The notes beneath the pieces were generated by a model. It did not search any database, was not told the origin of the DNA, and saw only the letters and a list, made by a program, of their open reading frames with translations. The translations under genes were made by a program, and so were the position numbers. A DNA stretch of 60,890 nt, the filler included, from Theionarchaea archaeon (GTDB taxonomy: Archaea; Methanobacteriota_B; Thermococci; Methanofastidiosales; SZ-28-30), in NCBI GenBank assembly GCA_018992565.1. It is 6 parts of 6 records of this genome, joined end to end, with 100 filler letters (N's around TTAATTAATTAA, not from the genome) between each part and the next. Parts side by side here need not be neighbours in the genome. Positions count along the whole stretch, not along the records: positions 20,662 to 27,421 come from JACVGW010000119.1; 5 more parts are not named here. One strand, 5' to 3'. Positions 145 to 27,521 of this stretch are shown in pieces. Position 1 is the stretch's first letter. The number at the start of each line of letters is the position of its first letter.

Positions 145-1551
145 GTGAATGTCATGCGACATGATGACAGTATGCACGGATCCTCAGAAGGGATGAGTCG
201 AGTTGGATACTTCATGGTGGCCTGGATTCTCTACTTTCTGATAGTAGCCTTCATGACGGTCATCCTCATGGGGCTGTTGGGATACCCGTCAGTGGTGAGG
301 AACCTTCTTCGGGTGTGTTTGATTTTTGCGTGCGCCACACCTGTGTTCTGGCTCGCTAAAAGGCTCATGGTACAGAGAGTGGGTCACTCGACTGAACACC
401 TTATGCTCGGTAGGGATGCCATCCCCTGGTCCAGAATCGATGGAATTGCATTGAAGAGGAGCGAGATGGGAAATACGTACCTTGTCATCCGTTATAAGGA
501 CGGAACTCTTCCAAAGAGTTATGACACATTTTTTTTCGAGGGCCAGAGGAATTCAGTGAGCCTGTTGAGGGAAAAGGCACGTCAAGAGGGGATTCTCTTC
601 ACCGTTGAGGAAGGTATTGATATTGAAGAAGTAGTTCCTTCACCGACACCATTTCCCACGTCAACATCTTTCCTGCAAGAGATGAAGGTGGAATATGAAC
701 GACAGAAGAAGATACGGGAAGAGAACCTCACGAAAGGGGAGAAAAAAATACGGGAACCCCACATAAAGATACCATCCTGGATGAAACACCCCTGGATGAA
801 ACCGCTCATCATGGTGGCACTGGCAGGGACTTTCTTCCTGGGATTCTCTCTCGTTTTCGACTTTCGAATCTCAGCTGCTCTCTTTATGGTGGTACTTGTG
901 CACGAGACTGGGCATCTCATAGCAATGAAGCTGTTTCACCTGAAAACGCATGGGATATTCTTCATACCTTTCCTGGGGGCAGGAACTGCACCTGAGGAAC
1001 CATTTCCTTCCCCAGAAATTGAGGCTGTAGTGGCAATGGCAGGACCTGCCATGGGGCTCTCATGGAATATCGGTGCGTACTGGCTGGGCGAGCCTTTTGT
1101 CATCACATACGCGGTCCAGGATGCATCCCTGGTATTCTCTTTGATCCTCGTTCTGCATATTGCCGTATACCTCAATTTGGCACTGAACCTGGTAAACCTC
1201 TTACCTCTTCTTCCTTTAGATGGTGGCAGGATTGTAAGAGTTGCTCTGCTGAGAGGGAAAAAGAGCCTGGTCCTGGTGGGTATCGTCACAGTTGGAGGCG
1301 GCATGGCGCTGAGTATTCTTGCCAGAGATGTAATTCTCTTCATCGTGGTTCTCCTGGGAGGAGCTTCTTTGTGGCTGAACTACAAGAGGATCATGAAAAA
1401 AGAGGTCAGCCCTCCAGCAAAATGGACGTGTGTTATGATCCTGGGAGCCTGGATAGGTCTCATATTCCTGTGCTGGTATACCCTCCCTGGCCCATTTAAG
1501 AGGTTGCTGATGGAGCTGTTGGAGATGATAGGGGAAGGGCCCTTCTCATAG
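145..1551 (+). CDS. Site-2 protease (M50 zinc metalloprotease) with extra N-terminal membrane/soluble region
   Basis: HETGH zinc motif, AGP motif, NLLPLLPLDGG motif and multiple hydrophobic segments; exact start uncertain. Confidence 0.88.
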   Translation: MNVMRHDDSMHGSSEGMSRVGYFMVAWILYFLIVAFMTVILMGLLGYPSVVRNLLRVCLIFACATPVFWLAKRLMVQRVGHSTEHLMLGRDAIPWSRIDGIALKRSEMGNTYLVIRYKDGTLPKSYDTFFFEGQRNSVSLLREKARQEGILFTVEEGIDIEEVVPSPTPFPTSTSFLQEMKVEYERQKKIREENLTKGEKKIREPHIKIPSWMKHPWMKPLIMVALAGTFFLGFSLVFDFRISAALFMVVLVHETGHLIAMKLFHLKTHGIFFIPFLGAGTAPEEPFPSPEIEAVVAMAGPAMGLSWNIGAYWLGEPFVITYAVQDASLVFSLILVLHIAVYLNLALNLVNLLPLLPLDGGRIVRVALLRGKKSLVLVGIVTVGGGMALSILARDVILFIVVLLGGASLWLNYKRIMKKEVSPPAKWTCVMILGAWIGLIFLCWYTLPGPFKRLLMELLEMIGEGPFS

Positions 1552-2035
1552 GCTACGTAGTGTCTTCTTCTGAACAACAGATCGTGCTGACAGCAGAGAC
1601 CCCCCTGATGGAGTGAACCTTATACGAGAAGAGGTCCTGAGTACTAACGCGGGTGCTACAGCCAATGGTTGCAGGAGAAAACTTCAGAGATTATTAGAAA
1701 TACACCACAAGGGCTGATAGAGCTAGTGAACCTTTTCTCCTTTACAGGTGCAGTATCCTGAATTCTCTTCTAGGTAGCATTGACACGCAAAGGATTCAGG
1801 TTTGCTCAAAACCCGCAAACCCAAAATATAAGAAGATGTGATCACCTGCTTCTACTAGGGAAAGTAGTTCAAGAGAATGTTGAATCAATCTGGAAGGGAT
1901 ATTGCAGGTCGCAGCGCACGTTAGAGGTATTGCTGTCAATGTGAACGTGAAATACAACTTCTCACAGATCAGAAGAGAAGACTCCAGAGAATTTCAACAT
2001 CAAAAGAGATTTAAATCTAAAAGGAGGTGTATATA

Positions 2036-3220
2036 ATGAGCTGGATAAAACATACAGGCTGCACATATCACAACCAGGACACTGGATACTACTGCGGTGC
2101 TGCAGCTGACATGATGGTTCTGGCAGAAATCGGTGTACCCTACTCCCAGCTTGATCAGAATGATCTGTACAGCTCAAACCATAACCATAACCAACAGCCA
2201 AACTGGTACAGTGACCCCTACGGCATTAGATGGACAATGAACAATCGAAAGCCTCCAGGTGCACTGGGTTTTGTTGTATACAAACCCACAACTTATGAAG
2301 AAGGAACACGAAAGATTATTGATACGATATATGAGTATAATGTCGCTCCCATAGCACTGGTGTATGGCTGCATGCACTGGATCGTTGTTGCAGGTGTACA
2401 GACAAACGTAGAGCCTATCACGGACAACTACATATTGGAAGGATTCTGGATTCACAATCCAGTTTACCATTCGCCTGCTCCACCCCCGCCCCACAGCGCT
2501 TCAGATGGGTGTGGATCTGGAGGGATTACGGGAACTGCGAATGAGTTCGTGAGTCAATCCTACTGGGAGGGGAACCTCTTCACGGGATGCAACTACGACG
2601 ATCCCAATGGAAACCTCCAGTACGTCAGTATCTGTGACCCAAAACCCCCAAGAGTTCCTCCACCCCTGCCTGAAGGAATAAGATTCAAGGGGTTACCGGA
2701 TAGGCTTCTTGATCCAGAGCAGGTGATCAGTCTCAGTACAGCAAGCATGGAGAGGTACAGACTTGACAAAGACGAACGTGTTGCCCCAATACTCCAGAAG
2801 GACAGGGTAGGTGAGCCCCAACTTGTCCTCCGTCTCGATCAGCCGAATACGTACTACTACATTCTTCCCTGGACAACCAAGGAAGGTGCAACCTCTCTTA
2901 CAGCGCAGATAGATGCCCGTTCAGGGGCATTCAACAGCCTTCAGCTGCGAGAGAAATCAAAGAGCAGGGAGTTCTTGTCCAAGAAACAGGCTATTGCACG
3001 GGTTGAAAAGCAGCGATTCACCATGCTTAAGAGACGGAGAACCATTGTCTTCTACCCGGGAGTGACTCAGCCTGTGCCCACGCTGGTCTGGCGTCCCTGC
3101 TGGGAATCGTGGTCTCCACATCTGCCCTTCTACCAGTTCACCCTGGGGAATGACACGGTCTACGTTCGGGTGGATGGCCAGGTATTTACAGAGCTCACCA
3201 CAAAGGGACGTGGAGCCTAG
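2036..3220 (+). CDS. Papain-fold C39-like cysteine peptidase with C-terminal PepSY-like region
   Basis: NQDTGYYCGAAA (Gln...Cys), MHWIVVAG (His), IHNP; RBS GGAGGTG before ATG 2036; no signal peptide. Confidence 0.65.
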   Translation: MSWIKHTGCTYHNQDTGYYCGAAADMMVLAEIGVPYSQLDQNDLYSSNHNHNQQPNWYSDPYGIRWTMNNRKPPGALGFVVYKPTTYEEGTRKIIDTIYEYNVAPIALVYGCMHWIVVAGVQTNVEPITDNYILEGFWIHNPVYHSPAPPPPHSASDGCGSGGITGTANEFVSQSYWEGNLFTGCNYDDPNGNLQYVSICDPKPPRVPPPLPEGIRFKGLPDRLLDPEQVISLSTASMERYRLDKDERVAPILQKDRVGEPQLVLRLDQPNTYYYILPWTTKEGATSLTAQIDARSGAFNSLQLREKSKSREFLSKKQAIARVEKQRFTMLKRRRTIVFYPGVTQPVPTLVWRPCWESWSPHLPFYQFTLGNDTVYVRVDGQVFTELTTKGRGA

Positions 3221-4245: not shown

Positions 4246-4262
4246 AATATCACCTCAATTAA

Positions 4263-4307
4263 CTTTACTTAATGTTAAGTTAACTTTAAGTATATAAATC
4301 TTTCGGT
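4263..4307 (-). promoter_or_regulatory. BRE/TATA promoter plus palindromic operator of hsp20 (copy 1)
   Basis: Minus strand reads ACCGAAAGATTTATATACTTAAAGTTAACTTAACATTAAGTAAAG, 44/45 identical to 8802-8846. Confidence 0.85.
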
Positions 4308-4464
4308 GGCATTGAGAAGCATTCTACGGGATTTGATTTCGTGATTTGTGCAATCAGTACATCTCCTTCACTTTGAAAAATCAGAAAGGTAGATGAGGAG
4401 ATCACATGGAGAACCGTTATATACTCTGAATACAAAGCGAGCTCATGGATTCTGGAGGAGTGTA

Positions 4465-5579
4465 ATGGTGTCAATATACTCTGGAATAGTGATGGTTCTC
4501 ATGCTGGTGATACTGCCTTCCCAGGATTCTCCCGAGATTCCCATAGTGGTGGAACAACACAACCAGGTGGCCCCTGCACTTTACGGGACTGTTGTAGTGT
4601 GGGAAGATAATAGAAATGGCAATTCGGATATCTACGGATATGATCTTTCAACAGGGGAGGAATTTCAGGTTACCATAGATGAAAGCCACCAGGAGAATCC
4701 AGCCATCTATGACCGAATAATAGTGTGGGAAGATAATAGAAATGGCAATTCAGATATCTATGGGTACGACCTTACAACAGGGGAGAAATTTCAGGTTACC
4801 ACCAACGACAGAGATCAGACTGCTCCTGAAATTTATGAGAACATTATAGTCTGGCAGGATGATAGAAATGGCAATTCAGATATCTATGGATATGATCTTT
4901 CAACAGGGGAGGAATTCCAGATTACGTCAGATGATGGTAATCAGCACTTTCCTGCAATCTATGGGGAAATAGTGGTATGGGAAGACTGCAGGAATGGAAA
5001 CAAGGATATCTATGGGTACAACATGACGACGCACGAGGAATTCCAGATGACTGATGAATTTAGAGACGAGCGGTTTCCTGTCATTTATCAAGATGTGGTA
5101 ATCTGGAACAGCTATCCCGAGGTTCATCCTGGAGGTGAATGTATGAAACCGGACATGGTTTTTGGAAAGGATATTCTTGTTTTTTCAACTGATCCTTCAA
5201 ATCACGGTATTAATGGGTACAACCTGTCCACAGGGAGCACCTTCAGGGTTATCAAGAATGGGGTGAGTAGTGCTCCTGCGCTTTCTGTGAGGTTGGTGGT
5301 GTGGACAGATACGAGGGATATTGATGACGTGTATTCGCCCACTGTTGACAGTGATATTTATGGGTATGATCTTTCTTCTCGGAGAGAGATTCAAGTAACA
5401 ACGGATCCAGACAGGCAGGCATACCCTGCAGTGTACGATACGACTGTGGTATGGGTTGATTACCGGAATGGTAATCCAGATATTTACGGGCGCATTCTGA
5501 CGGATCTACCGGAATCATACGCTTTTTCTTTTCTGGGTGTTCTTGCTGTGATCTTGGTTGTTATGGGCATCCTGGTCAT
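4465..5579 (+). CDS. Cell-surface beta-propeller repeat protein with N-terminal signal and C-terminal TM helix; 3' end lost in N gap
   Basis: Repeated ~42-aa unit PAIYxxIVVWEDNRNGNSDIYGYDLxTGEEFQVT (126-bp DNA repeats from ~4595); ORF track falsely fuses it across the gap. Confidence 0.85.
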
Positions 5580-20661: not shown

Positions 20662-20978
20662 CAGTTTCACTGGATCTATCTCCTGCATGTGCTCTGACCT
20701 TGTATCATGGAACAACAGAGAAGGCAGCTTCGAGCATCCTGAAAGAAGGACTGAAACCCAAGACCAGACAGAAAGTCCACCTCTCACCAAGCATTGAGAC
20801 AGCATTGGACGTGGGGAAACGACACTGCGAAACCCCTGTAGTCCTGGAAATAAATACCAGAAAAGCACTGGAAGATGGTATCTCCATTCAGAAGGCCAGC
20901 AATGTAGTCTACGTGGCAGACTACATACCTCCCCAGTACATTACAGTCCTCAGGAAGCGGCGATTTTCTACTGAATAG
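20662..20978 (+). CDS. kptA: RNA 2'-phosphotransferase (KptA/Tpt1), C-terminal part
   Basis: YHGT, GLKP..RQKVHLS, VGKRH, VY...IPPQY. Confidence 0.85.
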
Positions 20979-21124
20979 CACCCTTCAGAGTAAGATTTTA
21001 AGATACCTCTTGTTCTCAACAAAGACAGAAAATACATTTCTATCACTTGATTTGGACTAAACCCAAAAATTTATAAGCCATGCTATAAAGAGACGTTTAG
21101 AATCTCTATGACGGAGGTGACACC

Positions 21125-21289
21125 ATGTATGCAGCATTGATCTCAGATGGGATTGAAGGGAACCCAGCTCCTCTCGGGTCATGTATCAATGGAGACGGGC
21201 CAGAGTATGGATTCTACTGCTTCAACCTGGGCATAACGCCAACTGGCGGAGGAAAATGCAAATATGGCTTGCAGAGCATGAACGAATAG
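21125..21289 (+). CDS. Putative RiPP precursor P1, 54 aa: MYAALISDGIEGNPAPLGSCINGDGPEYGFYCFNLGITPTGGGKCKYGLQSMNE
   Basis: Absent from ORF track; TTTATAA box 21070-76, RBS GGAGGTGA 21113-20, T-tract after stop; 3 Cys spaced 12-13 aa; paralog at 58395. Confidence 0.8.
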   Translation: MYAALISDGIEGNPAPLGSCINGDGPEYGFYCFNLGITPTGGGKCKYGLQSMNE

Positions 21290-21406
21290 TACATGTAGGA
21301 GAAACGATTTTTCAGCTCCTTTTTTTCTCTTTCTCATTTGAGGTCAGAATACGGCATGGCTTAACGTCATGGAAACCCTCATATAGGTACATGTTCCCGG
21401 CTTCTC

Positions 21407-22132
21407 ATGATTATCACTGAGAGAGAGGGGATTTGTCCCGCATTGCGCAAGTACTATTCCCGGTTAGCCAGATTCATGATAGCACTTGTGGAAATCCCAG
21501 AGAATGCCATCATTCTGGAAGCAGGGTGTGGTGACGGTGCTTTAACCTGTCATCTTCTTTCGCTCTTGCCAGATCATGTAGTTGTAGGCTATGATTTGTT
21601 TTCGGGCGTCTATGAGGAAAGTCTCAGTGCTTTAACAGGAGCAGTGTCACAGATGAGAGTAATCAGAGGAGACGTGAGAACCATGAGTCTCCATACAGAA
21701 TCTGTGGACCTTGTTATCAGTAATGAATTACTCTGTGACCTCTCCAGGAATGATACCCAGGTGACACTCAATGAGTTCTACAGGATTCTGAGAAAAGGGG
21801 GGACTTTTATTCACGGATGCTTGAGTCCTTATCCAGAAACCAGGGCTCAGGAGCTGGTCTTATTGGCTGACAGTTATTCTGCTGATCCTTTATTTGATCA
21901 CGAATGGTTTTCCCCGCCTGCAGATGAACTGGCAGGAATGGTTCACTCTGCAGGGTTTCGCCAGATCTCTGTGACGTATTTTTCTGATAGCCTGAAGTTC
22001 ACCGGTGATGCAGCTTTCTGCCACTTAGAAGAGTGGGTTCTAAAACCTGAGTTCTTTGAGAAGTATTCCTCAGAGGTCAGGGCCCGCGGGATCGAATATC
22101 CCATGGAGCAGGTAATACACTGCTGTAAGTGA
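21407..22132 (+). CDS. Class I SAM-dependent methyltransferase
   Basis: ILEAGCGDG, GDV, VDLVIS, YRILRKGG. Confidence 0.9.
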   Translation: MIITEREGICPALRKYYSRLARFMIALVEIPENAIILEAGCGDGALTCHLLSLLPDHVVVGYDLFSGVYEESLSALTGAVSQMRVIRGDVRTMSLHTESVDLVISNELLCDLSRNDTQVTLNEFYRILRKGGTFIHGCLSPYPETRAQELVLLADSYSADPLFDHEWFSPPADELAGMVHSAGFRQISVTYFSDSLKFTGDAAFCHLEEWVLKPEFFEKYSSEVRARGIEYPMEQVIHCCK

Positions 22133-22351
22133 AGAGGTTCATGAGAATATTCGAAACTCGGTGGATAATTAAAGATGAGAGTTTCCAATTCATCAAGACA
22201 GCAATGGGTTGGATATCATAATAGACTGTGCCTCAAAATCAAGGGGTTGTGTATGTTCCCAGTGGTGTCCCAGGAGTGTCTTTCGTGAAGTGAATATTCA
22301 TTTTCCAGGTACAGTGACAGGGTTTTTAATTGAAGGGTTTAAAGAGGAGTC

Positions 22352-22717
22352 ATGACATGCAAAGAGATGATTGCTGTCTGTGGATTGGATTGTGAATCCT
22401 GCGACATCAGGAGGGTACCATTTGACTCAGACGCACGTGAACGCATGGTGAAATGGTTTAGAGCACAGGGATGGATTAAGGAGAGTGAGGGTGTTGAAGA
22501 AATAATCAGCCGCAAAATGTATTGCAAAGGATGTCGTGGCGATCGCTCTGTTCACTGGTCACCAGAGTGTCCAATTCTGGTGTGCTGTGTTGATGAGAAG
22601 GGGTTCAAGAGCTGTCATGAATGCAACGACTTCCCCTGTGAAAAGCTGGAAAAGCAGGCTGAACAGGGAGGAAAATATCGCGAAGCCCTTGACCGTCTCA
22701 GAACCATGAAAAAGTGA
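22352..22717 (+). CDS. Cys-rich DUF3795-like protein
   Basis: AVCGLDCESC, CKGC, C.I..CC..KG..SC.EC..FPC. Confidence 0.8.
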   Translation: MTCKEMIAVCGLDCESCDIRRVPFDSDARERMVKWFRAQGWIKESEGVEEIISRKMYCKGCRGDRSVHWSPECPILVCCVDEKGFKSCHECNDFPCEKLEKQAEQGGKYREALDRLRTMKK

Positions 22718-22864
22718 GAGCTTAAAAGGAAATATCATGTACCAGCAATTGCTGTGCTTCTTGTTAAGGATTTCCTGAAGATTGCAGCACGAAGAAGACA
22801 ATGATAATGACTGATCCGGGTTCTCAATCTATACATTTATATATTTGAAAGGGGCTGCCTCTGT

Positions 22865-23479
22865 ATGGAAGATCTGAAGGGAAGGTATGTTCGCTGGTCT
22901 GAAGCCTGTGTCTGGCAGCCCTTTGGCACTTCTCTGGCCATTCTCAGAGTTCTGGCACCTGATTCTTCGCCCTCGCAGGAAAGCGAAGGGATCAAACTGA
23001 ATGCAACAGGGAAAGATGTGTGGGATCTATGCGATGGTACAAGAACGGTTGACGACATTGTGGCCCAGTTACTGGAAGAATACCAGGGCGAACCAGAAAG
23101 AATCCAGGAAAGTGTGGAAACCATAGTATTGATGTTACAAGAACGGGGGTTCTTAACATGTGAAAGTACTCCTCACCTCTATTCGGTACGTGAGATCCCA
23201 CTCCAGGACTATGCCTGCTGGAATGACACAATCATCTGGAATGAGGTGGAAGGCCAGGTGGTGGCGATGAACAACTCTACAGGAGTCGCTCTTCCAATTC
23301 CCACTGAAGCAGCTGAAATGTGGAAGTTGTGTAATGGTAAAACCGCAGTGGAAGATATTTTTTCCATCCTCAAATCGAAGGGATTAATCACACAAAAGAT
23401 GCCTCTTGCCAAATTTAAATTACTTCTGAAACAGTGGATAAAGCTCAATTTCATTATCCTGAAGGATGAGCCTCTATGA
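22865..23479 (+). CDS. Tandem PqqD/RRE peptide-chaperone protein
   Basis: Two PqqD-like units: LNATGKDVWDLCDGTRTVDDIVAQLLEEY and AAEMWKLCNGKTAVEDIFSIL. Confidence 0.88.
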   Translation: MEDLKGRYVRWSEACVWQPFGTSLAILRVLAPDSSPSQESEGIKLNATGKDVWDLCDGTRTVDDIVAQLLEEYQGEPERIQESVETIVLMLQERGFLTCESTPHLYSVREIPLQDYACWNDTIIWNEVEGQVVAMNNSTGVALPIPTEAAEMWKLCNGKTAVEDIFSILKSKGLITQKMPLAKFKLLLKQWIKLNFIILKDEPL

Positions 23480-23488
23480 GGAGATTGC

Positions 23489-24835
23489 ATGCGTGCCTTG
23501 AAAAAAAGAATTACTGTTGAGTTACCTAGTGAAAAATACCTCCTTATTAACCCTTATTCCGGCCTGGCTGACATCATCGATTCAGAAACCAAGAATCTGC
23601 TGGACTCTGAATCAAGTGATGCAACCTATGAGGTCCTTCGTATTCTCAAATCAAGAGGACACCTGGTAGAAGAGGGAGAAGAAGATGATCTTTTTGAATA
23701 CTTGAAGCTCTATGCACAAGAACTGCACTCAGAGGCCTGCAAGAAGAACCACCACCTCATCATCCCCACCTACCACTGCAATCTGACGTGTCCCTACTGC
23801 TTTCAGAAGCACGTATATCGCAAGCGAGCAAACCTCCACATGGTAATGGATGAACAGACTGTAGATTCGCTCTTTAAGGCCATTCTTTTTCTGGATTCTG
23901 AAACTGAAGAAAAATGCATAGAACTATATGGTGGAGAACCTCTTCAAGTGAGGAATATCTCTATTATAGAGTACATCCTCAGAAAAGGTGATTATAACGG
24001 GTATTCATTTAGAGCAATAACTAATGGGGCTGATTTCTATCATTTTGTCCCTTTGCTATCTGAATTCGATGTCAAGGAGGTTCAAATAACTCTCGATGGT
24101 CCCAGGAACGTGCATGATCAAAGACGATTCAGAAAAGGGGGGACGTTTGATGATATTGTGAAAGGCATTGACCTGGCCCTGGAGCATGACATTCCAATAA
24201 GAATCAGAATCAACGTCGACTATGAAAATATCGATTCTATTCCAGAACTTGCACAGTTCTACATAGAAAAGGGATGGTCCTCAAAGGTGAAGGCCAGCAT
24301 AACCAGTGTCTATGCGTCTGAATGTGTGGAGTACCCTTCTGTCATCCCACTGGAGGACGTTCCCCGGAAGATTATTGACCTGTTCTTCAAAGATGAGAGA
24401 ATGACTGTGTTCTCTGATACCTTCAAGGGGCTCAATTTTCTCCTGGGTCACCTTCTACTTGGAGAAGAATTCCACCACCGCTTCTGGGCGTGTAATGCTC
24501 ATACCACACTCCTCTTCTATGATCCTCTTGGAGATATCTATGCATGTGGTGAAGCTGTCGGACATCCGGAGCATGTCATTGGTAAATACATACCTGCACT
24601 CCGCTTCAATGACACGTACTCTCACTGGCGCAACAGGACAGTATTTGCCATTCCTGAATGCACAGAATGCAACCTGGCATTTTTCTGTGGAGGCGGCTGC
24701 GCCTACAAAGCGTATACAGAAACACATTCTATCTACAGTCCGTACTGCGAAAATGTGAAATTCTCGTTGAACTGTGAAGTTCCCTACCTGTATCATGTAG
24801 CCAAACAGAAAGAAGAGAAGGAGGGTGATCTCTGA
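23489..24835 (+). CDS. Radical SAM/SPASM peptide maturase
   Basis: CNLTCPYC, YGGEP, TNG, QITLDG; SPASM C...GDIYAC...CTECNLAFFCGGGC...C; N-terminal RRE-like segment. Confidence 0.93.
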   Translation: MRALKKRITVELPSEKYLLINPYSGLADIIDSETKNLLDSESSDATYEVLRILKSRGHLVEEGEEDDLFEYLKLYAQELHSEACKKNHHLIIPTYHCNLTCPYCFQKHVYRKRANLHMVMDEQTVDSLFKAILFLDSETEEKCIELYGGEPLQVRNISIIEYILRKGDYNGYSFRAITNGADFYHFVPLLSEFDVKEVQITLDGPRNVHDQRRFRKGGTFDDIVKGIDLALEHDIPIRIRINVDYENIDSIPELAQFYIEKGWSSKVKASITSVYASECVEYPSVIPLEDVPRKIIDLFFKDERMTVFSDTFKGLNFLLGHLLLGEEFHHRFWACNAHTTLLFYDPLGDIYACGEAVGHPEHVIGKYIPALRFNDTYSHWRNRTVFAIPECTECNLAFFCGGGCAYKAYTETHSIYSPYCENVKFSLNCEVPYLYHVAKQKEEKEGDL

Positions 24836-24922
24836 GGCTGTATCAGAGCAGCGGGAATAGTCCTGGCATACTAATACCTGCATATCTTTGAATTTTGCCC
24901 GAATCTTTCTGCATATCTTTAT

Positions 24923-26743
24923 ATGTCAAGAATGAAGAGGATTTTTATGATGAAGCTCCATCTGCATGCCAATTTTCCCTATGATTACACCACACCAAAT
25001 GCAGCTCTCGGATATTTGAAATCGTATCTTGCACCATTCAACCATGAGGTAACGAATACATACTGGTATATCCCCCCACGAGAGATTTTTGAGGCCATGC
25101 GTGGGATCTTGGCACGGTTCCAGAAGAGCCGCATCAGCCTCTTTGATCCTTCAATTATCCTCACTGCGTACCTGTCACGGTTCTTTTACAGGGCCCCGGC
25201 ATGCCCCACCATGATCCAATCAATCGTGACCTCCTGTGCATCTCCAGAAGAATTGGAACAGGTTGGATTGTCCTACAAAGGGTTTGTAGATACTGCCCTT
25301 GAGGACATGGCTGATGTAGACATGGCAGGATTCACCCTCAAGTTCTACCAGTGGATTCTGAATTGCTACATCTGGCGCAGACTAAAGCAGCTGAACCCGA
25401 ATATCACTATTGTTATAGGTGGCCTCGATACACGTGAGGAGGCAGTAAAGGCCATGGAGACCTTCAGGGACGTGGACTGCGCCATCTGGGGAGAAGGTGA
25501 ATGTCCGCTGCGAGAGCTGATTACCAGGGATACGGACGGCATGGATGAAGTGCCCCGCCTCATCTACAGGAAGCGCGGTGACCTCTGTATAACTGATATC
25601 ACTACAGAGAGAGTGAGAGAATACCCCTTTGCAGACCATACAGACTACTTTAGACAGCTCAGACAGTTTGATCTGGATATTTCTCCACAGATCCCCATGT
25701 TCACCACCCGCTCCTGCAGGTGGGACAAATGTAAATTCTGCAACGAAAATAAGGGGATCTCCTACTTTGAACGATCAATAGATGAGACTATCAAGGAGAT
25801 AGAATATCAAACCAAGACTCATGGTGTTGACCGGATTGTGTTCCTGGACGCAGATATTGGACGGAAAACTGAGAGAGATTTCAAGAACCTTTTGGAAGGG
25901 CTTCTTCACAGTGTGGATACCAGAGGAGCCCCCTATGATATGGTGGCTGACATATCTCCACAGAGACTGACCAGAGAGACTGTCCAGATGATGAGCAAGA
26001 TCAGGATGGGTGTGCAGATAGGGTTTGAAGCCTTGACAGATTCTCTCTTGAGAAAGATGAATAAGAGGCATTCGTTTCTGGAGAATATCCAGGCTCTCAA
26101 GGTTGCATATGAGTATGGGCTGAAGATGTATGGGCTGAATGTGCTGCGTAACCTCCCGGGGGAGACAGAGCATGAGGTCATGGAGAGTATGGAACAGATA
26201 AAGGGTCTCCGGTTCTTCTTGAGGGAATATCCCCTTCATCTGTCTGAGCTGACACTGTATAAGAGGGCACCCTACTTCAAGGAGATTTCTCCAGAGGAAC
26301 GGGAAACGAGATGGGTTGTCAACTTCCTGTATGATGAGATGTGTCAGCAGGGCCTCCTCAATGAGGAGGGAAGGTGGGACTTTTTTGGGTTCAGGGCACG
26401 GGATTTGATACATCATAACCTGTGGGACCAGGTGGCGACACTGCTGGAACGGGTCCAGTCAGAGACCATTTCGTATACGTGGCAGGAACACGGGGATGGG
26501 AGTGTATTGATTGAGAATAACCAGGTGACTGGGGACAAGAAGTACGTCCTCACCAGGACTGAAACTGACGTTCTGAAGTTCTGTGACAGTGTCGTGTCTT
26601 TAGAACAGGTGGAGGAGAGATTTCCTGATGACGATATTAGTGATATACTCTCACAGCTGAGGAAGGAAGCTTTCCTGTATCTTGATGAAAGGAATCGAGT
26701 AATTTCTATTCTCTCTGCCCGGAAGATTGTCCCAGAAGACTGA
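24923..26743 (+). CDS. Cobalamin-type (class B) radical SAM enzyme, RiPP C-methyltransferase-like, with C-terminal RRE-like wHTH
   Basis: PNAALGYLKSYL, IVIGG, WGEGE, RSCRWDKCKFC (CX4CX2C), QIGFEAL..LL.KMNK; C-terminal LTRTETDVLKFCD. Confidence 0.85.
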   Translation: MSRMKRIFMMKLHLHANFPYDYTTPNAALGYLKSYLAPFNHEVTNTYWYIPPREIFEAMRGILARFQKSRISLFDPSIILTAYLSRFFYRAPACPTMIQSIVTSCASPEELEQVGLSYKGFVDTALEDMADVDMAGFTLKFYQWILNCYIWRRLKQLNPNITIVIGGLDTREEAVKAMETFRDVDCAIWGEGECPLRELITRDTDGMDEVPRLIYRKRGDLCITDITTERVREYPFADHTDYFRQLRQFDLDISPQIPMFTTRSCRWDKCKFCNENKGISYFERSIDETIKEIEYQTKTHGVDRIVFLDADIGRKTERDFKNLLEGLLHSVDTRGAPYDMVADISPQRLTRETVQMMSKIRMGVQIGFEALTDSLLRKMNKRHSFLENIQALKVAYEYGLKMYGLNVLRNLPGETEHEVMESMEQIKGLRFFLREYPLHLSELTLYKRAPYFKEISPEERETRWVVNFLYDEMCQQGLLNEEGRWDFFGFRARDLIHHNLWDQVATLLERVQSETISYTWQEHGDGSVLIENNQVTGDKKYVLTRTETDVLKFCDSVVSLEQVEERFPDDDISDILSQLRKEAFLYLDERNRVISILSARKIVPED

Positions 26744-26893
26744 GCATGTAGTTGCTACTGTTGTATCGGCTTACATCAGACTGTGAGATAGAGGCAGTTC
26801 GAATTATTTGTAGCAGGATGTTCAAAAATTCTGATTCTTACCTGACAAAAGATATATATAGGTGAAGCGTGAAGAGTCAGCAGAGGTGATACA

Positions 26894-27016
26894 ATGGAAG
26901 TCGTACGACTCAACAAGAAGATGTGGACTGATGCTACTGTGGAACCCTTGGATTTCAATCCAGGACCTGCTGTCATCTGCGGCTGCGGTGGCGGCTGCTG
27001 TTATGGCAGATGGTAG
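26894..27016 (+). CDS. Putative RiPP precursor P3, 40 aa: MEVVRLNKKMWTDATVEPLDFNPGPAVICGCGGGCCYGRW
   Basis: Absent from ORF track; own TATA (GATATATATA ~26851-60), RBS GAGGTGA, T-tract ~27050-66; Cys/Gly core. Confidence 0.85.
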   Translation: MEVVRLNKKMWTDATVEPLDFNPGPAVICGCGGGCCYGRW

Positions 27017-27521
27017 TCACTGTAGCGAATGAAGACCTCTGAAACACACCTCTTTCTCTTTTTTTTAATTACTCCGACTCTGACAGCTCTCAAGTCTGTC
27101 CAGGACTGGACCTGCTTCATACTGGAGGCGACATATTCATTCTGATAGAGATTCCATCATTTTCAGGAGCAGTGGGTAGTACACTTCTCTGGCCTGCTTG
27201 GAAAAGGTGCAGTCTGGCTGGAGCAACCTCCCTTTTTCTTGATATGTGTAGTGGCCACATCCTCCGCCACAGATCATGGCAAACTTGCAGTAATGACATG
27301 ATTTCATGTGAAAGATTGTTCTCTTTCTCCATTGGTGATACTTCTGGTTAAATGAAAGATCAGGGTAATATCTCCCAACTGCATGTTGGGGATCACCCAG
27401 AGAATCAGTGCAGAAATAGAGNNNNNNNNNNNNNNNNNNNNNNNNNNNNNNNNNNNNNNNNNNNNTTAATTAATTAANNNNNNNNNNNNNNNNNNNNNNN
27501 NNNNNNNNNNNNNNNNNNNNN

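Follow-up and report, generated by a model that had tools for sequence, protein, structure and literature searches.

Does the 40-codon open reading frame (ORF) that stands, unannotated, behind a B12-type radical S-adenosylmethionine (rSAM) gene in the genome of a Theionarchaea archaeon encode the precursor of a peptide that is made by ribosomes and then modified post-translationally (RiPP)? The ORF lies at positions 26894-27016, on the plus strand, of the 60,890-nucleotide stretch of DNA analysed here (the window), which is joined from contigs of one metagenome-assembled genome (MAG G000, GenBank GCA_018992565.1; 2.8 Mb, 154 contigs, 88% complete). Our comparisons argue that it is a real gene and not a chance ORF, and we consider it likely to be a RiPP structural gene, whose product would undergo leader-guided thioether cross-linking of its Cys residues and C-methylation by the enzymes of the adjoining cassette. 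Judged from sequence comparison, the general kind is a known one, that of rSAM/SPASM-modified Cys-rich RiPPs, and what is newly found is a rare, unannotated archaeal precursor family within that kind. An earlier reading of the DNA by itself (the original prediction) had proposed the peptide as a substrate of the SPASM and/or class B enzyme; this proposal is backed by the leader/tail architecture of the family, the presence of rSAM/SPASM genes beside the peptide at nine of nine loci, a tandem RiPP recognition element (RRE) protein and the signs of purifying selection on the ORF.

The peptide and its family

The ORF translates as MEVVRLNKKMWTDATVEPLDFNPGPAVICGCGGGCCYGRW, followed by a stop codon. 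Residues 1-28 contain no Cys, all four falling within the final 12, and the segment CGCGGGCC holds 4 Cys and 4 Gly over 8 residues. A leader of approximately residues 1-22, carrying the family motif RLNKKMWTD, is followed by the Cys/Gly-rich core (...AVICGCGGGCCYGRW). The gene and the sequence patterns around it are as follows.

26847-26860, plus strand: A/T-rich TATA-like box AAAAGATATATATA, 34-47 nt 5' of the ATG; putative archaeal promoter by pattern match
26883-26889, plus strand: Shine-Dalgarno-like GAGGTGA, 4 nt 5' of the ATG
26894-27016, plus strand: precursor peptide gene, 40 aa, with an ATG start, from ORF listing and translation
27050-27066, plus strand: T-rich tract CTCTTTCTCTTTTTTTT, 3' of the stop codon; putative archaeal terminator by pattern match

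The reading frame and its translation, the Cys-free front, the density of Cys and Gly, the position behind a B12-type rSAM gene (24923-26743, with 150 nt between its stop and the ATG of the peptide) and the presence of all three expression signals agree with what had been described originally, the signals being sequence patterns and not mapped transcript ends. When 11 family genes are lined up, a GGTGA box is found upstream of all of them, an A/T box upstream of nine and a T-tract downstream of seven. A scan for sigma-70 promoters and bacterial hairpin terminators returned a single promoter-like site (minus strand, no better than shuffles) and no terminators; these models are bacterial and the host is archaeal, so this outcome is uninformative. 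There was no RNA run among the 23 public runs listed, 20 of them containing the stretch.

The search for paralogs and orthologs that the original prediction had called for was productive both in the MAG itself and in public metagenomes. Within the MAG, a tblastn-type search with the peptide identified four small paralogous ORFs, found on C30, twice on C13 and on C29 (E 2.4e-10, 3.5e-8, 0.005 and 0.012). All five own-genome ORFs start M/V-x-x-x-x-(L/V)-N-K-K-x-W-(T/A/R)-(D/E) and are preceded by a GGTGA box, while their Cys-rich tails differ; the signature of the Cys-free leader across the family is (L/V)NKKxW(T/A)(D/E). Across the six frames of the whole genome (2.8 Mb), [LVI]NKK.W has five occurrences, each of them in one of the family ORFs; as a rough estimate gives ~2 matches by chance, the weight of this result lies in the location of the matches and not in their number. 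Weaker own-genome matches on C105 (E 0.05), at C13:42746 inside a SPASM ORF (E 0.34) and on C137 (E 0.41) were dropped as non-family, as were matches in G021 (two internal stops) and on G001:C1 (within a 447-aa ORF).

Searching with the 40-aa peptide as a single sequence in a word index gave no match. A profile built from the five peptides, on the other hand, matched 13 proteins in a collection of 5.8 billion clusters and 19 among 1.84 billion representatives at E <= 0.001. Of the latter, 17 are peptides of 46-76 aa sharing the leader, with cores such as CGCGCGGCCC...LC..LIC; P0025 (554 aa) and P0026 (1501 aa) were left out of the family count. Two of the profile-matched proteins carry the source names 'Candidatus Methanofastidiosia archaeon' and 'Theionarchaea archaeon'. 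Among 34 species-representative genomes of the order, the family is present in two, G000 and the same-genus G001, and it was found in none of 27 genomes of the same class outside the order. One match to a Verrucomicrobiota MAG, from a five-row alignment run against genome contigs, was rejected as chance, since the 17 matched residues run straight into a stop codon. In the ESM Atlas the best matches are unnamed clusters at 0.83-0.87, under the useful range. Taken as it stands, this distribution indicates a rare, unnamed family of a few uncultured sediment archaea.

The alignment of 21 members separates a conserved front from a variable remainder: pairwise identity is 67% over residues 1-13 and 25% over residues 14-22. 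None of the members has a Cys in its first 22 residues, and their tails hold 4-11. The window peptide is the shortest of the 21, and nowhere is conservation within the family lower than in the segment with the 'EPL' that had been proposed as the end of its leader. A short precursor (40 aa) with a leader and a Cys core, the leader being conserved and the tails variable family-wide, is what is looked for in a thioether RiPP.

Several comparisons between close sequences bear on selection. P0006, a close orthologue recovered in a public metagenome, shares 90% identity with the window peptide; its four changes (M10L, D13E, E17K and N22T) all fall within the leader, leaving GPAVICGCGGGCCYGRW, the core, identical in the two. 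Public DNA contigs from four runs were compared over 26500-27400. A 139-base contig from run X20 over the ORF has 11 differences, of which eight were listed; among those listed, seven are synonymous and the eighth is M10L, and the probability of at least seven synonymous changes among eight is 1.5e-4, given that 22% of possible changes are synonymous. A second X20 strain has no differences within the ORF and four in the following 123 nt. Between the C29 paralog and its orthologue in G001, DNA identity is 76% in the ORF and 57% and 59% in the 150-nt flanks, the upstream identity being mostly that of a conserved TTTTAACTAAAGA box and GGAGGTGA site. We conclude from these substitution patterns that the ORF is under purifying selection.

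Two further observations concern possible relatives. In run X20, contig depth increases several-fold precisely where the ribosome-binding site and first leader codons lie (window 26872-26933), and one X20 contig is common with the window only over 26872-26933, diverging upstream, which suggests that the X20 community has additional family genes whose leaders open in the same way. Separately, a region of G001 (L027, G001:C10:12525-15638) contains a 67-aa ORF (1429-1632, plus strand) with a similar tail (...GKCGGCACGC...) and a different leader, without LNKKxW, directly before a 454-aa rSAM/SPASM gene (1679-3043, plus strand); it may represent a sister family in which the leader has been swapped.

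The enzymes beside the peptide

At all nine loci examined (on C97, C30, C29, twice on C13, in G001, and at L020, L021 and L022), at least one rSAM/SPASM gene lies within ~2 kb of the peptide gene. The contig of the window peptide (C97, GenBank JACVGW010000119.1) carries the following other genes.

22865-23479, plus strand: tandem RRE (double PqqD-like) protein, 204 aa; Pfam PqqD 76.3 bits; presumed leader-binding chaperone
23489-24835, plus strand: rSAM/SPASM maturase of 'clade A', 448 aa, starting 9 nt after the RRE gene; NCBIfam and SPASM matches
24923-26743, plus strand: B12-type (class B) rSAM enzyme, 606 aa; TIGR03975 147.6 bits; presumed C-methyltransferase
27137-27421, minus strand: second rSAM/SPASM maturase, of 'clade C', last 94 codons and stop; convergent, truncated by the contig end
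21407-22132, plus strand: class I SAM methyltransferase, 241 aa; Pfam Methyltransf_11/25; cluster membership uncertain
22352-22717, plus strand: DUF3795 protein, 121 aa; Pfam DUF3795 59.3 bits
20700-20978, plus strand: RNA 2'-phosphotransferase (Tpt1/KptA), C-terminal part, at the contig start; appears unrelated to the cluster

The limits of this contig matter for the reading of the locus. The window consists of MAG contigs chained by N...TTAATTAATTAA...N spacers and plain 100-N gaps, with 14 N runs within 5580-54777 (e.g. 27422-27521), and the peptide's contig is 6.8 kb long, covers positions 20662-27421 only and ends 405 nt past the ORF. Genes for aRF1, a C25-peptidase and thioredoxin reductase beyond 27522 lie on contig C98 and are therefore not true neighbours of the peptide. 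The cassettes of C97, C30 and the second C13 locus (C13b) are syntenic, with the tandem RRE and clade A enzyme before the peptide and a convergent clade C enzyme after it. Because these three are paralogous cassettes, and the clade C fragment is cut at the end of C97, the peptide's cluster is judged to continue past the contig end. A public contig of 5070 bases, from run X16, extends ~1.3 kb beyond that end.

The other loci vary this arrangement. In L020 the order is peptide, rSAM, tandem PqqD, rSAM, rSAM, methyltransferase. L021, a metagenome contig of 5177 bases, encodes a 462-aa B12-rSAM, a very divergent SPASM enzyme (on a long tree branch) and three tandem family precursors at 4248-5142, and ends just past the third precursor gene; L022, a contig of 1.5 kb, carries a SPASM gene in convergent orientation. 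Class I methyltransferases also occur in the C13 and L020 loci; those two are alike (32%, E 1e-27) and barely resemble the enzyme at 21407-22132, which possibly belongs to the cluster. Scans of other family loci did not show the DUF3795 protein, and nothing ties its gene to the cluster.

The 204-aa protein of the PqqD family appears, from its predicted fold, to be a tandem RRE. Pfam PqqD matches residues 40-97 at 76.3 bits (cut-off 23.4), and the second half is recognised as PqqD by sequence only at E 0.017. In an AlphaFold2 model (mean predicted local distance difference test score 82.9, from an input alignment of five sequences) the beta3-alpha3 topology occurs twice, at residues 8-100 and 116-200. 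The best Foldseek matches of the model in the PDB are the leader-binding RREs TbiB1 and lasso-peptide B1 (template modelling score on the target 0.81-0.83; root-mean-square deviation 2.3-2.4 Å for TbiB1) and PqqD, and the tandem-RRE protein ThcOx is also matched over >220 aligned columns. The recognition element expected of rSAM/SPASM thioether RiPPs is thus indicated by Pfam score, model and Foldseek alike.

The 448-aa clade A enzyme combines a Pfam Radical_SAM match (60.6 bits) with the TIGR04085 SPASM domain (46.9 bits, above the cut-off of 27), and has the motifs CX3CX2C (residue 97) and CX2CX5CX3C (residue 391); an adjacent rSAM enzyme with CX3CX2C and a SPASM domain is a further hallmark of thioether RiPPs. 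Its top match in NCBIfam is CefB (NF038107; 141.1 bits, cut-off 600), followed by TIGR04463, the CrpC family (136 bits, cut-off 525), the Clo7bot maturase (TIGR04334; 106.5 bits), PapB (NF047865; 100.8 bits, cut-off 340) and the SCIFF maturase (TIGR03974; 90.7 bits, cut-off 425). Membership in CefB, TIGR04463, PapB and the SCIFF maturase family is not reached at the curated cut-offs. The nearest solved structure is that of CteB, a thioether synthase (5WGG/5WHY; E 2.9e-21, residues 70-430 aligned).

In a tree of 31 SPASM paralogs, well-supported subclades (Shimodaira-Hasegawa-like approximate likelihood-ratio support 100) correspond to positions in the loci. Clade A (C97, C30, C13, C62 and L020) always adjoins a tandem-RRE gene, clade B is immediately downstream of the peptide (at C29, G001, L020 and the first C13 locus, C13a), and clades C and D are convergent, downstream of the peptide (C30 and C13b). 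The fragment after the window peptide has 69% identity with the convergent enzyme of C30 and 60% with that of C13, and matches SPASM residues 350-435. With the clade A SPASM enzyme as query, the MAG yields 41 matches at E <= 1e-10, by which count its rSAM/SPASM expansion is unusually large.

Other members of this expansion lie within or apart from the peptide loci. MftC/AhbD/StsB-like SPASM enzymes, of a lineage outside clades A-D, are encoded within two of the paralogous peptide loci, L009 on G000:C30 (9908-11068, minus strand, 386 aa) and L010 on G000:C13 (9087-10358, minus strand, 423 aa). L024 (G000:C62:1-8847) carries an RRE paralog (51%) and a SPASM paralog (58%); close by are another SPASM gene and genes for a glycosyltransferase and a MatE exporter.

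The best family for the 606-aa enzyme, by ~90 bits, is TIGR03975, 'RiPP maturation radical SAM C-methyltransferase', matched over profile positions 97-603 at 147.6 bits, which is short of the cut-off of 281.85. Pfam Radical_SAM is matched at 52.2 bits and the B12-binding domain only partially, at 19.4 bits, below its cut-off of 32.1; membership of TIGR03975 with a B12-binding domain is therefore not reached. The cluster motif is CX4CX2C at residue 265, and the PDB search gave a weak match to TokK. The closest paralogs of this enzyme (52%, 38% and 37%) are on other contigs. By these scores, the cassette enzymes are relatives, and not members, of CefB, TIGR04463, PapB and TIGR03975.

Proposed maturation and competing explanations

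We suggest that the tandem RRE protein would bind the LNKKxW leader and present the core, perhaps with the help of the N-terminal regions of the enzymes (a Pfam scan of SPASM enzyme residues 1-94 returned no RRE match, and no dedicated test for RREs in the enzymes' N-termini was made). The two SPASM enzymes would abstract hydrogen atoms and link Cys sulfurs to acceptor carbons to give thioethers, the most plausible links in so Gly-rich a core being Cys-to-alpha-carbon (sactionine-type) or non-alpha (ranthionine-type). The acceptors available in the window core are mainly Gly alpha-carbons, plus the side chains of Val, Ile, Tyr, Arg and Trp, which makes alpha-carbon links plausible. The B12-rSAM enzyme may methylate unactivated carbons, for example of Val27 or Ile28, and leader removal and export would need genes beyond the 6.8-kb contig.

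Several observations weigh against this proposal. Protease or exporter genes are absent from the peptide's contig, and the core lacks the Asp, Glu, Asn and Thr acceptors of classical ranthipeptides. Six 'catalytic proximity' positions of the clade A enzyme, mapped via the CteB alignment, read F,Y,I,T,G,E where CteB has F,F,T,S,H,Q, and the reaction type is extrapolated, because all enzyme scores are far under the family cut-offs. The closest RRE/SPASM paralog pair, that of C62, stands on an 8.8-kb contig, yet without a family peptide. Of the two enzyme partners originally named, the SPASM link is strong and the B12 link weaker: a B12-rSAM of the C97 type accompanies one of the five peptides in this genome, and the enzyme at L021 is of a different type (20% identical to that of C97).

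The peptide could be a genuine rSAM substrate subject to some other chemistry: a Tyr/Trp cyclophane or C-C cross-link at its YGRW end, Cys oxidation, epimerisation, or azoles that a YcaO enzyme would form in trans. Every family score lies under its threshold, and the cyclophane maturases YhhB (57.5 bits) and GrrM/OscB (43.8 bits) were matched as well; Y-G-R presumably resembles the aromatic-x-x units of three-residue cyclophanes, and Cys-Gly runs resemble what we take to be azole-forming cores. The five highest scores, however, all belong to thioether-forming families and the nearest structure is CteB, while the YGRW end is limited to the window peptide and its close orthologue P0006, Cys being the only feature common to all cores. 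For the azole variant there is one YcaO gene in the genome; it lies on C46 and on none of the contigs that carry the five peptides (C97, C30, C13 and C29), which makes the YcaO route unlikely within an alternative that we regard, as a whole, as unlikely.

The remaining explanations fare worse. The original prediction had itself raised a metal-binding role; on such a reading, an unmodified Cys-rich peptide would bind metal or iron-sulfur in the manner of a metallothionein and the rSAM neighbours would be coincidental or regulatory. Four Cys within eight core residues would suit such a role, and the Crp cluster of Methanococcus voltae is reported in PMC13692751 to be up-regulated on pyrite. Against this, hypervariable tails behind a conserved leader free of Cys are the pattern of a RiPP and not of a metal site, the number (4-11) and spacing of the Cys vary freely, and the genes for rSAM/SPASM enzymes adjoin the peptide throughout the loci examined, and an RRE fold dedicated to leader binding is also present; we consider metal binding by an unmodified peptide improbable. 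Whether the peptide belongs to the 'CGCGG family rSAM-modified RiPP protein', which we take to be an NCBIfam family with the methanogen peptide-modifying rSAM TIGR04083 as its presumed partner, had been left open. The core does contain the literal string CGCGG; however, the comparison with hidden Markov models gave no such match. The window peptide matches none of the 18,950 NCBIfam models at E <= 10, its four paralogs at the same threshold match only RlmD, spuriously (E 0.27), and the 21 members match no peptide family in NCBIfam at E <= 1 and likewise none in Pfam. Against TIGR04083, whose cut-off is 300, the clade A SPASM enzyme reaches 69.2 bits. Membership in the 'CGCGG' set thus seems scarcely plausible, and the same searches place the peptide outside CefA, SCIFF and the other named precursor families. 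The ORF is, finally, short and unannotated, in an intergenic region where ORFs in other frames overlap it (26862-27032, plus strand; 26776-26976, minus strand), as a chance ORF might be; the existence of paralogs and orthologues, the synonymous bias of the X20 variant and the conserved ribosome-binding site reduce the probability of this to practically nothing.

Returning to thioether cross-linking, which we favour, a bolder version of it can be put forward only tentatively, and we think it rather doubtful. The LNKKxW peptides might form a new archaeal RiPP class in which several SPASM paralogs (clades A-D, up to ~5 per locus) each add a different link to a near-pure Cys/Gly core, served in turn by the tandem-RRE chaperone, so that a densely caged poly-thioether, linked largely on Gly alpha-carbons and in some cases B12-methylated, would result. 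If so, the product could serve sulfur/metal handling or antagonism in sulfidic sediments. At a more modest level, the locus adds an unannotated gene family missed by Pfam and NCBIfam, and, with its substrate of only 40 aa, its two SPASM enzymes, its B12-rSAM and a tandem RRE encoded separately, offers a compact testable case, which could reveal how one leader serves several radical enzymes and whether alpha-carbons are the sites of cross-linking in Gly-rich Cys cores.

Comparison with known systems

Our literature searches turned up no prior description of the LNKKxW peptide family. An archaeal RiPP survey (PMC12144867), in the part of its text available, mentions predicted ranthi- and sactipeptide clusters in archaea in general terms only. 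As an experimentally characterised archaeal rSAM/SPASM system acting on a Cys-rich substrate, the same searches turned up only Crp (2026, PMC13692751). According to that study, CrpC is the first characterised member of TIGR04463 and forms ranthionines on a Cys-rich archaeal protein, in motifs such as CAGM and CPLV. The likeness to CrpA/CrpC of M. voltae lies in the pairing of an archaeal three-cluster rSAM/SPASM enzyme with a Cys-rich substrate that has a leader-like N-terminus. CrpA, however, is described there as a large protein in which a 17-residue motif recurs 10 times, whereas the substrate in the window has 40 aa, and unlike the Crp system the window locus has a separate tandem-domain RRE, several SPASM paralogs per peptide and a B12-rSAM. 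The Crp study screened only proteins of at least 100 aa; because shorter proteins were excluded, families of short peptides such as this one would have been invisible to it.

Among other maturases and their precursors, CteB/SCIFF (thermocellin) shares with the window system the CX3CX2C motif, the SPASM Cys pattern and, in CteB-type precursors, a short Cys-rich substrate; the clade A enzyme differs from CteB at four of the six active-site proximity positions, and the window core offers no Thr, Asp or Glu acceptors. The CefA/CefB 'Cys-every-fifth' system (NF038107) supplies the top-scoring model for most of the SPASM paralogs as well as for the clade A enzyme, but the Cys of the window core are adjacent or alternating and not at every fifth residue, and the peptide has no model match.

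The precedent for Cys-to-Gly alpha-carbon thioethers is StsA/StsB of Streptomyces sparsogenes (NF045574; PMC10288494), where StsB is described as making three Cys-to-Gly sactionines in a CxCxC...GxGxG core. StsB is bacterial, and there is no StsB-like enzyme on the peptide's contig; the MftC/StsB-like SPASM enzymes at C30 and C13 score 93.9 and 94.2 bits against a cut-off of 625. As for the 606-aa enzyme, the B12-dependent C-methyltransferases of the PoyB/PoyC type (TIGR03975) provide its only strong family match, along nearly the whole profile, and the differences from those systems are the score below cut-off, the CX4CX2C cluster motif and a substrate that is not proteusin- or NHLP-like. Set beside these systems, the features that appear to distinguish the locus are its stand-alone tandem RRE, the several SPASM paralogs per peptide and the accessory B12-rSAM.

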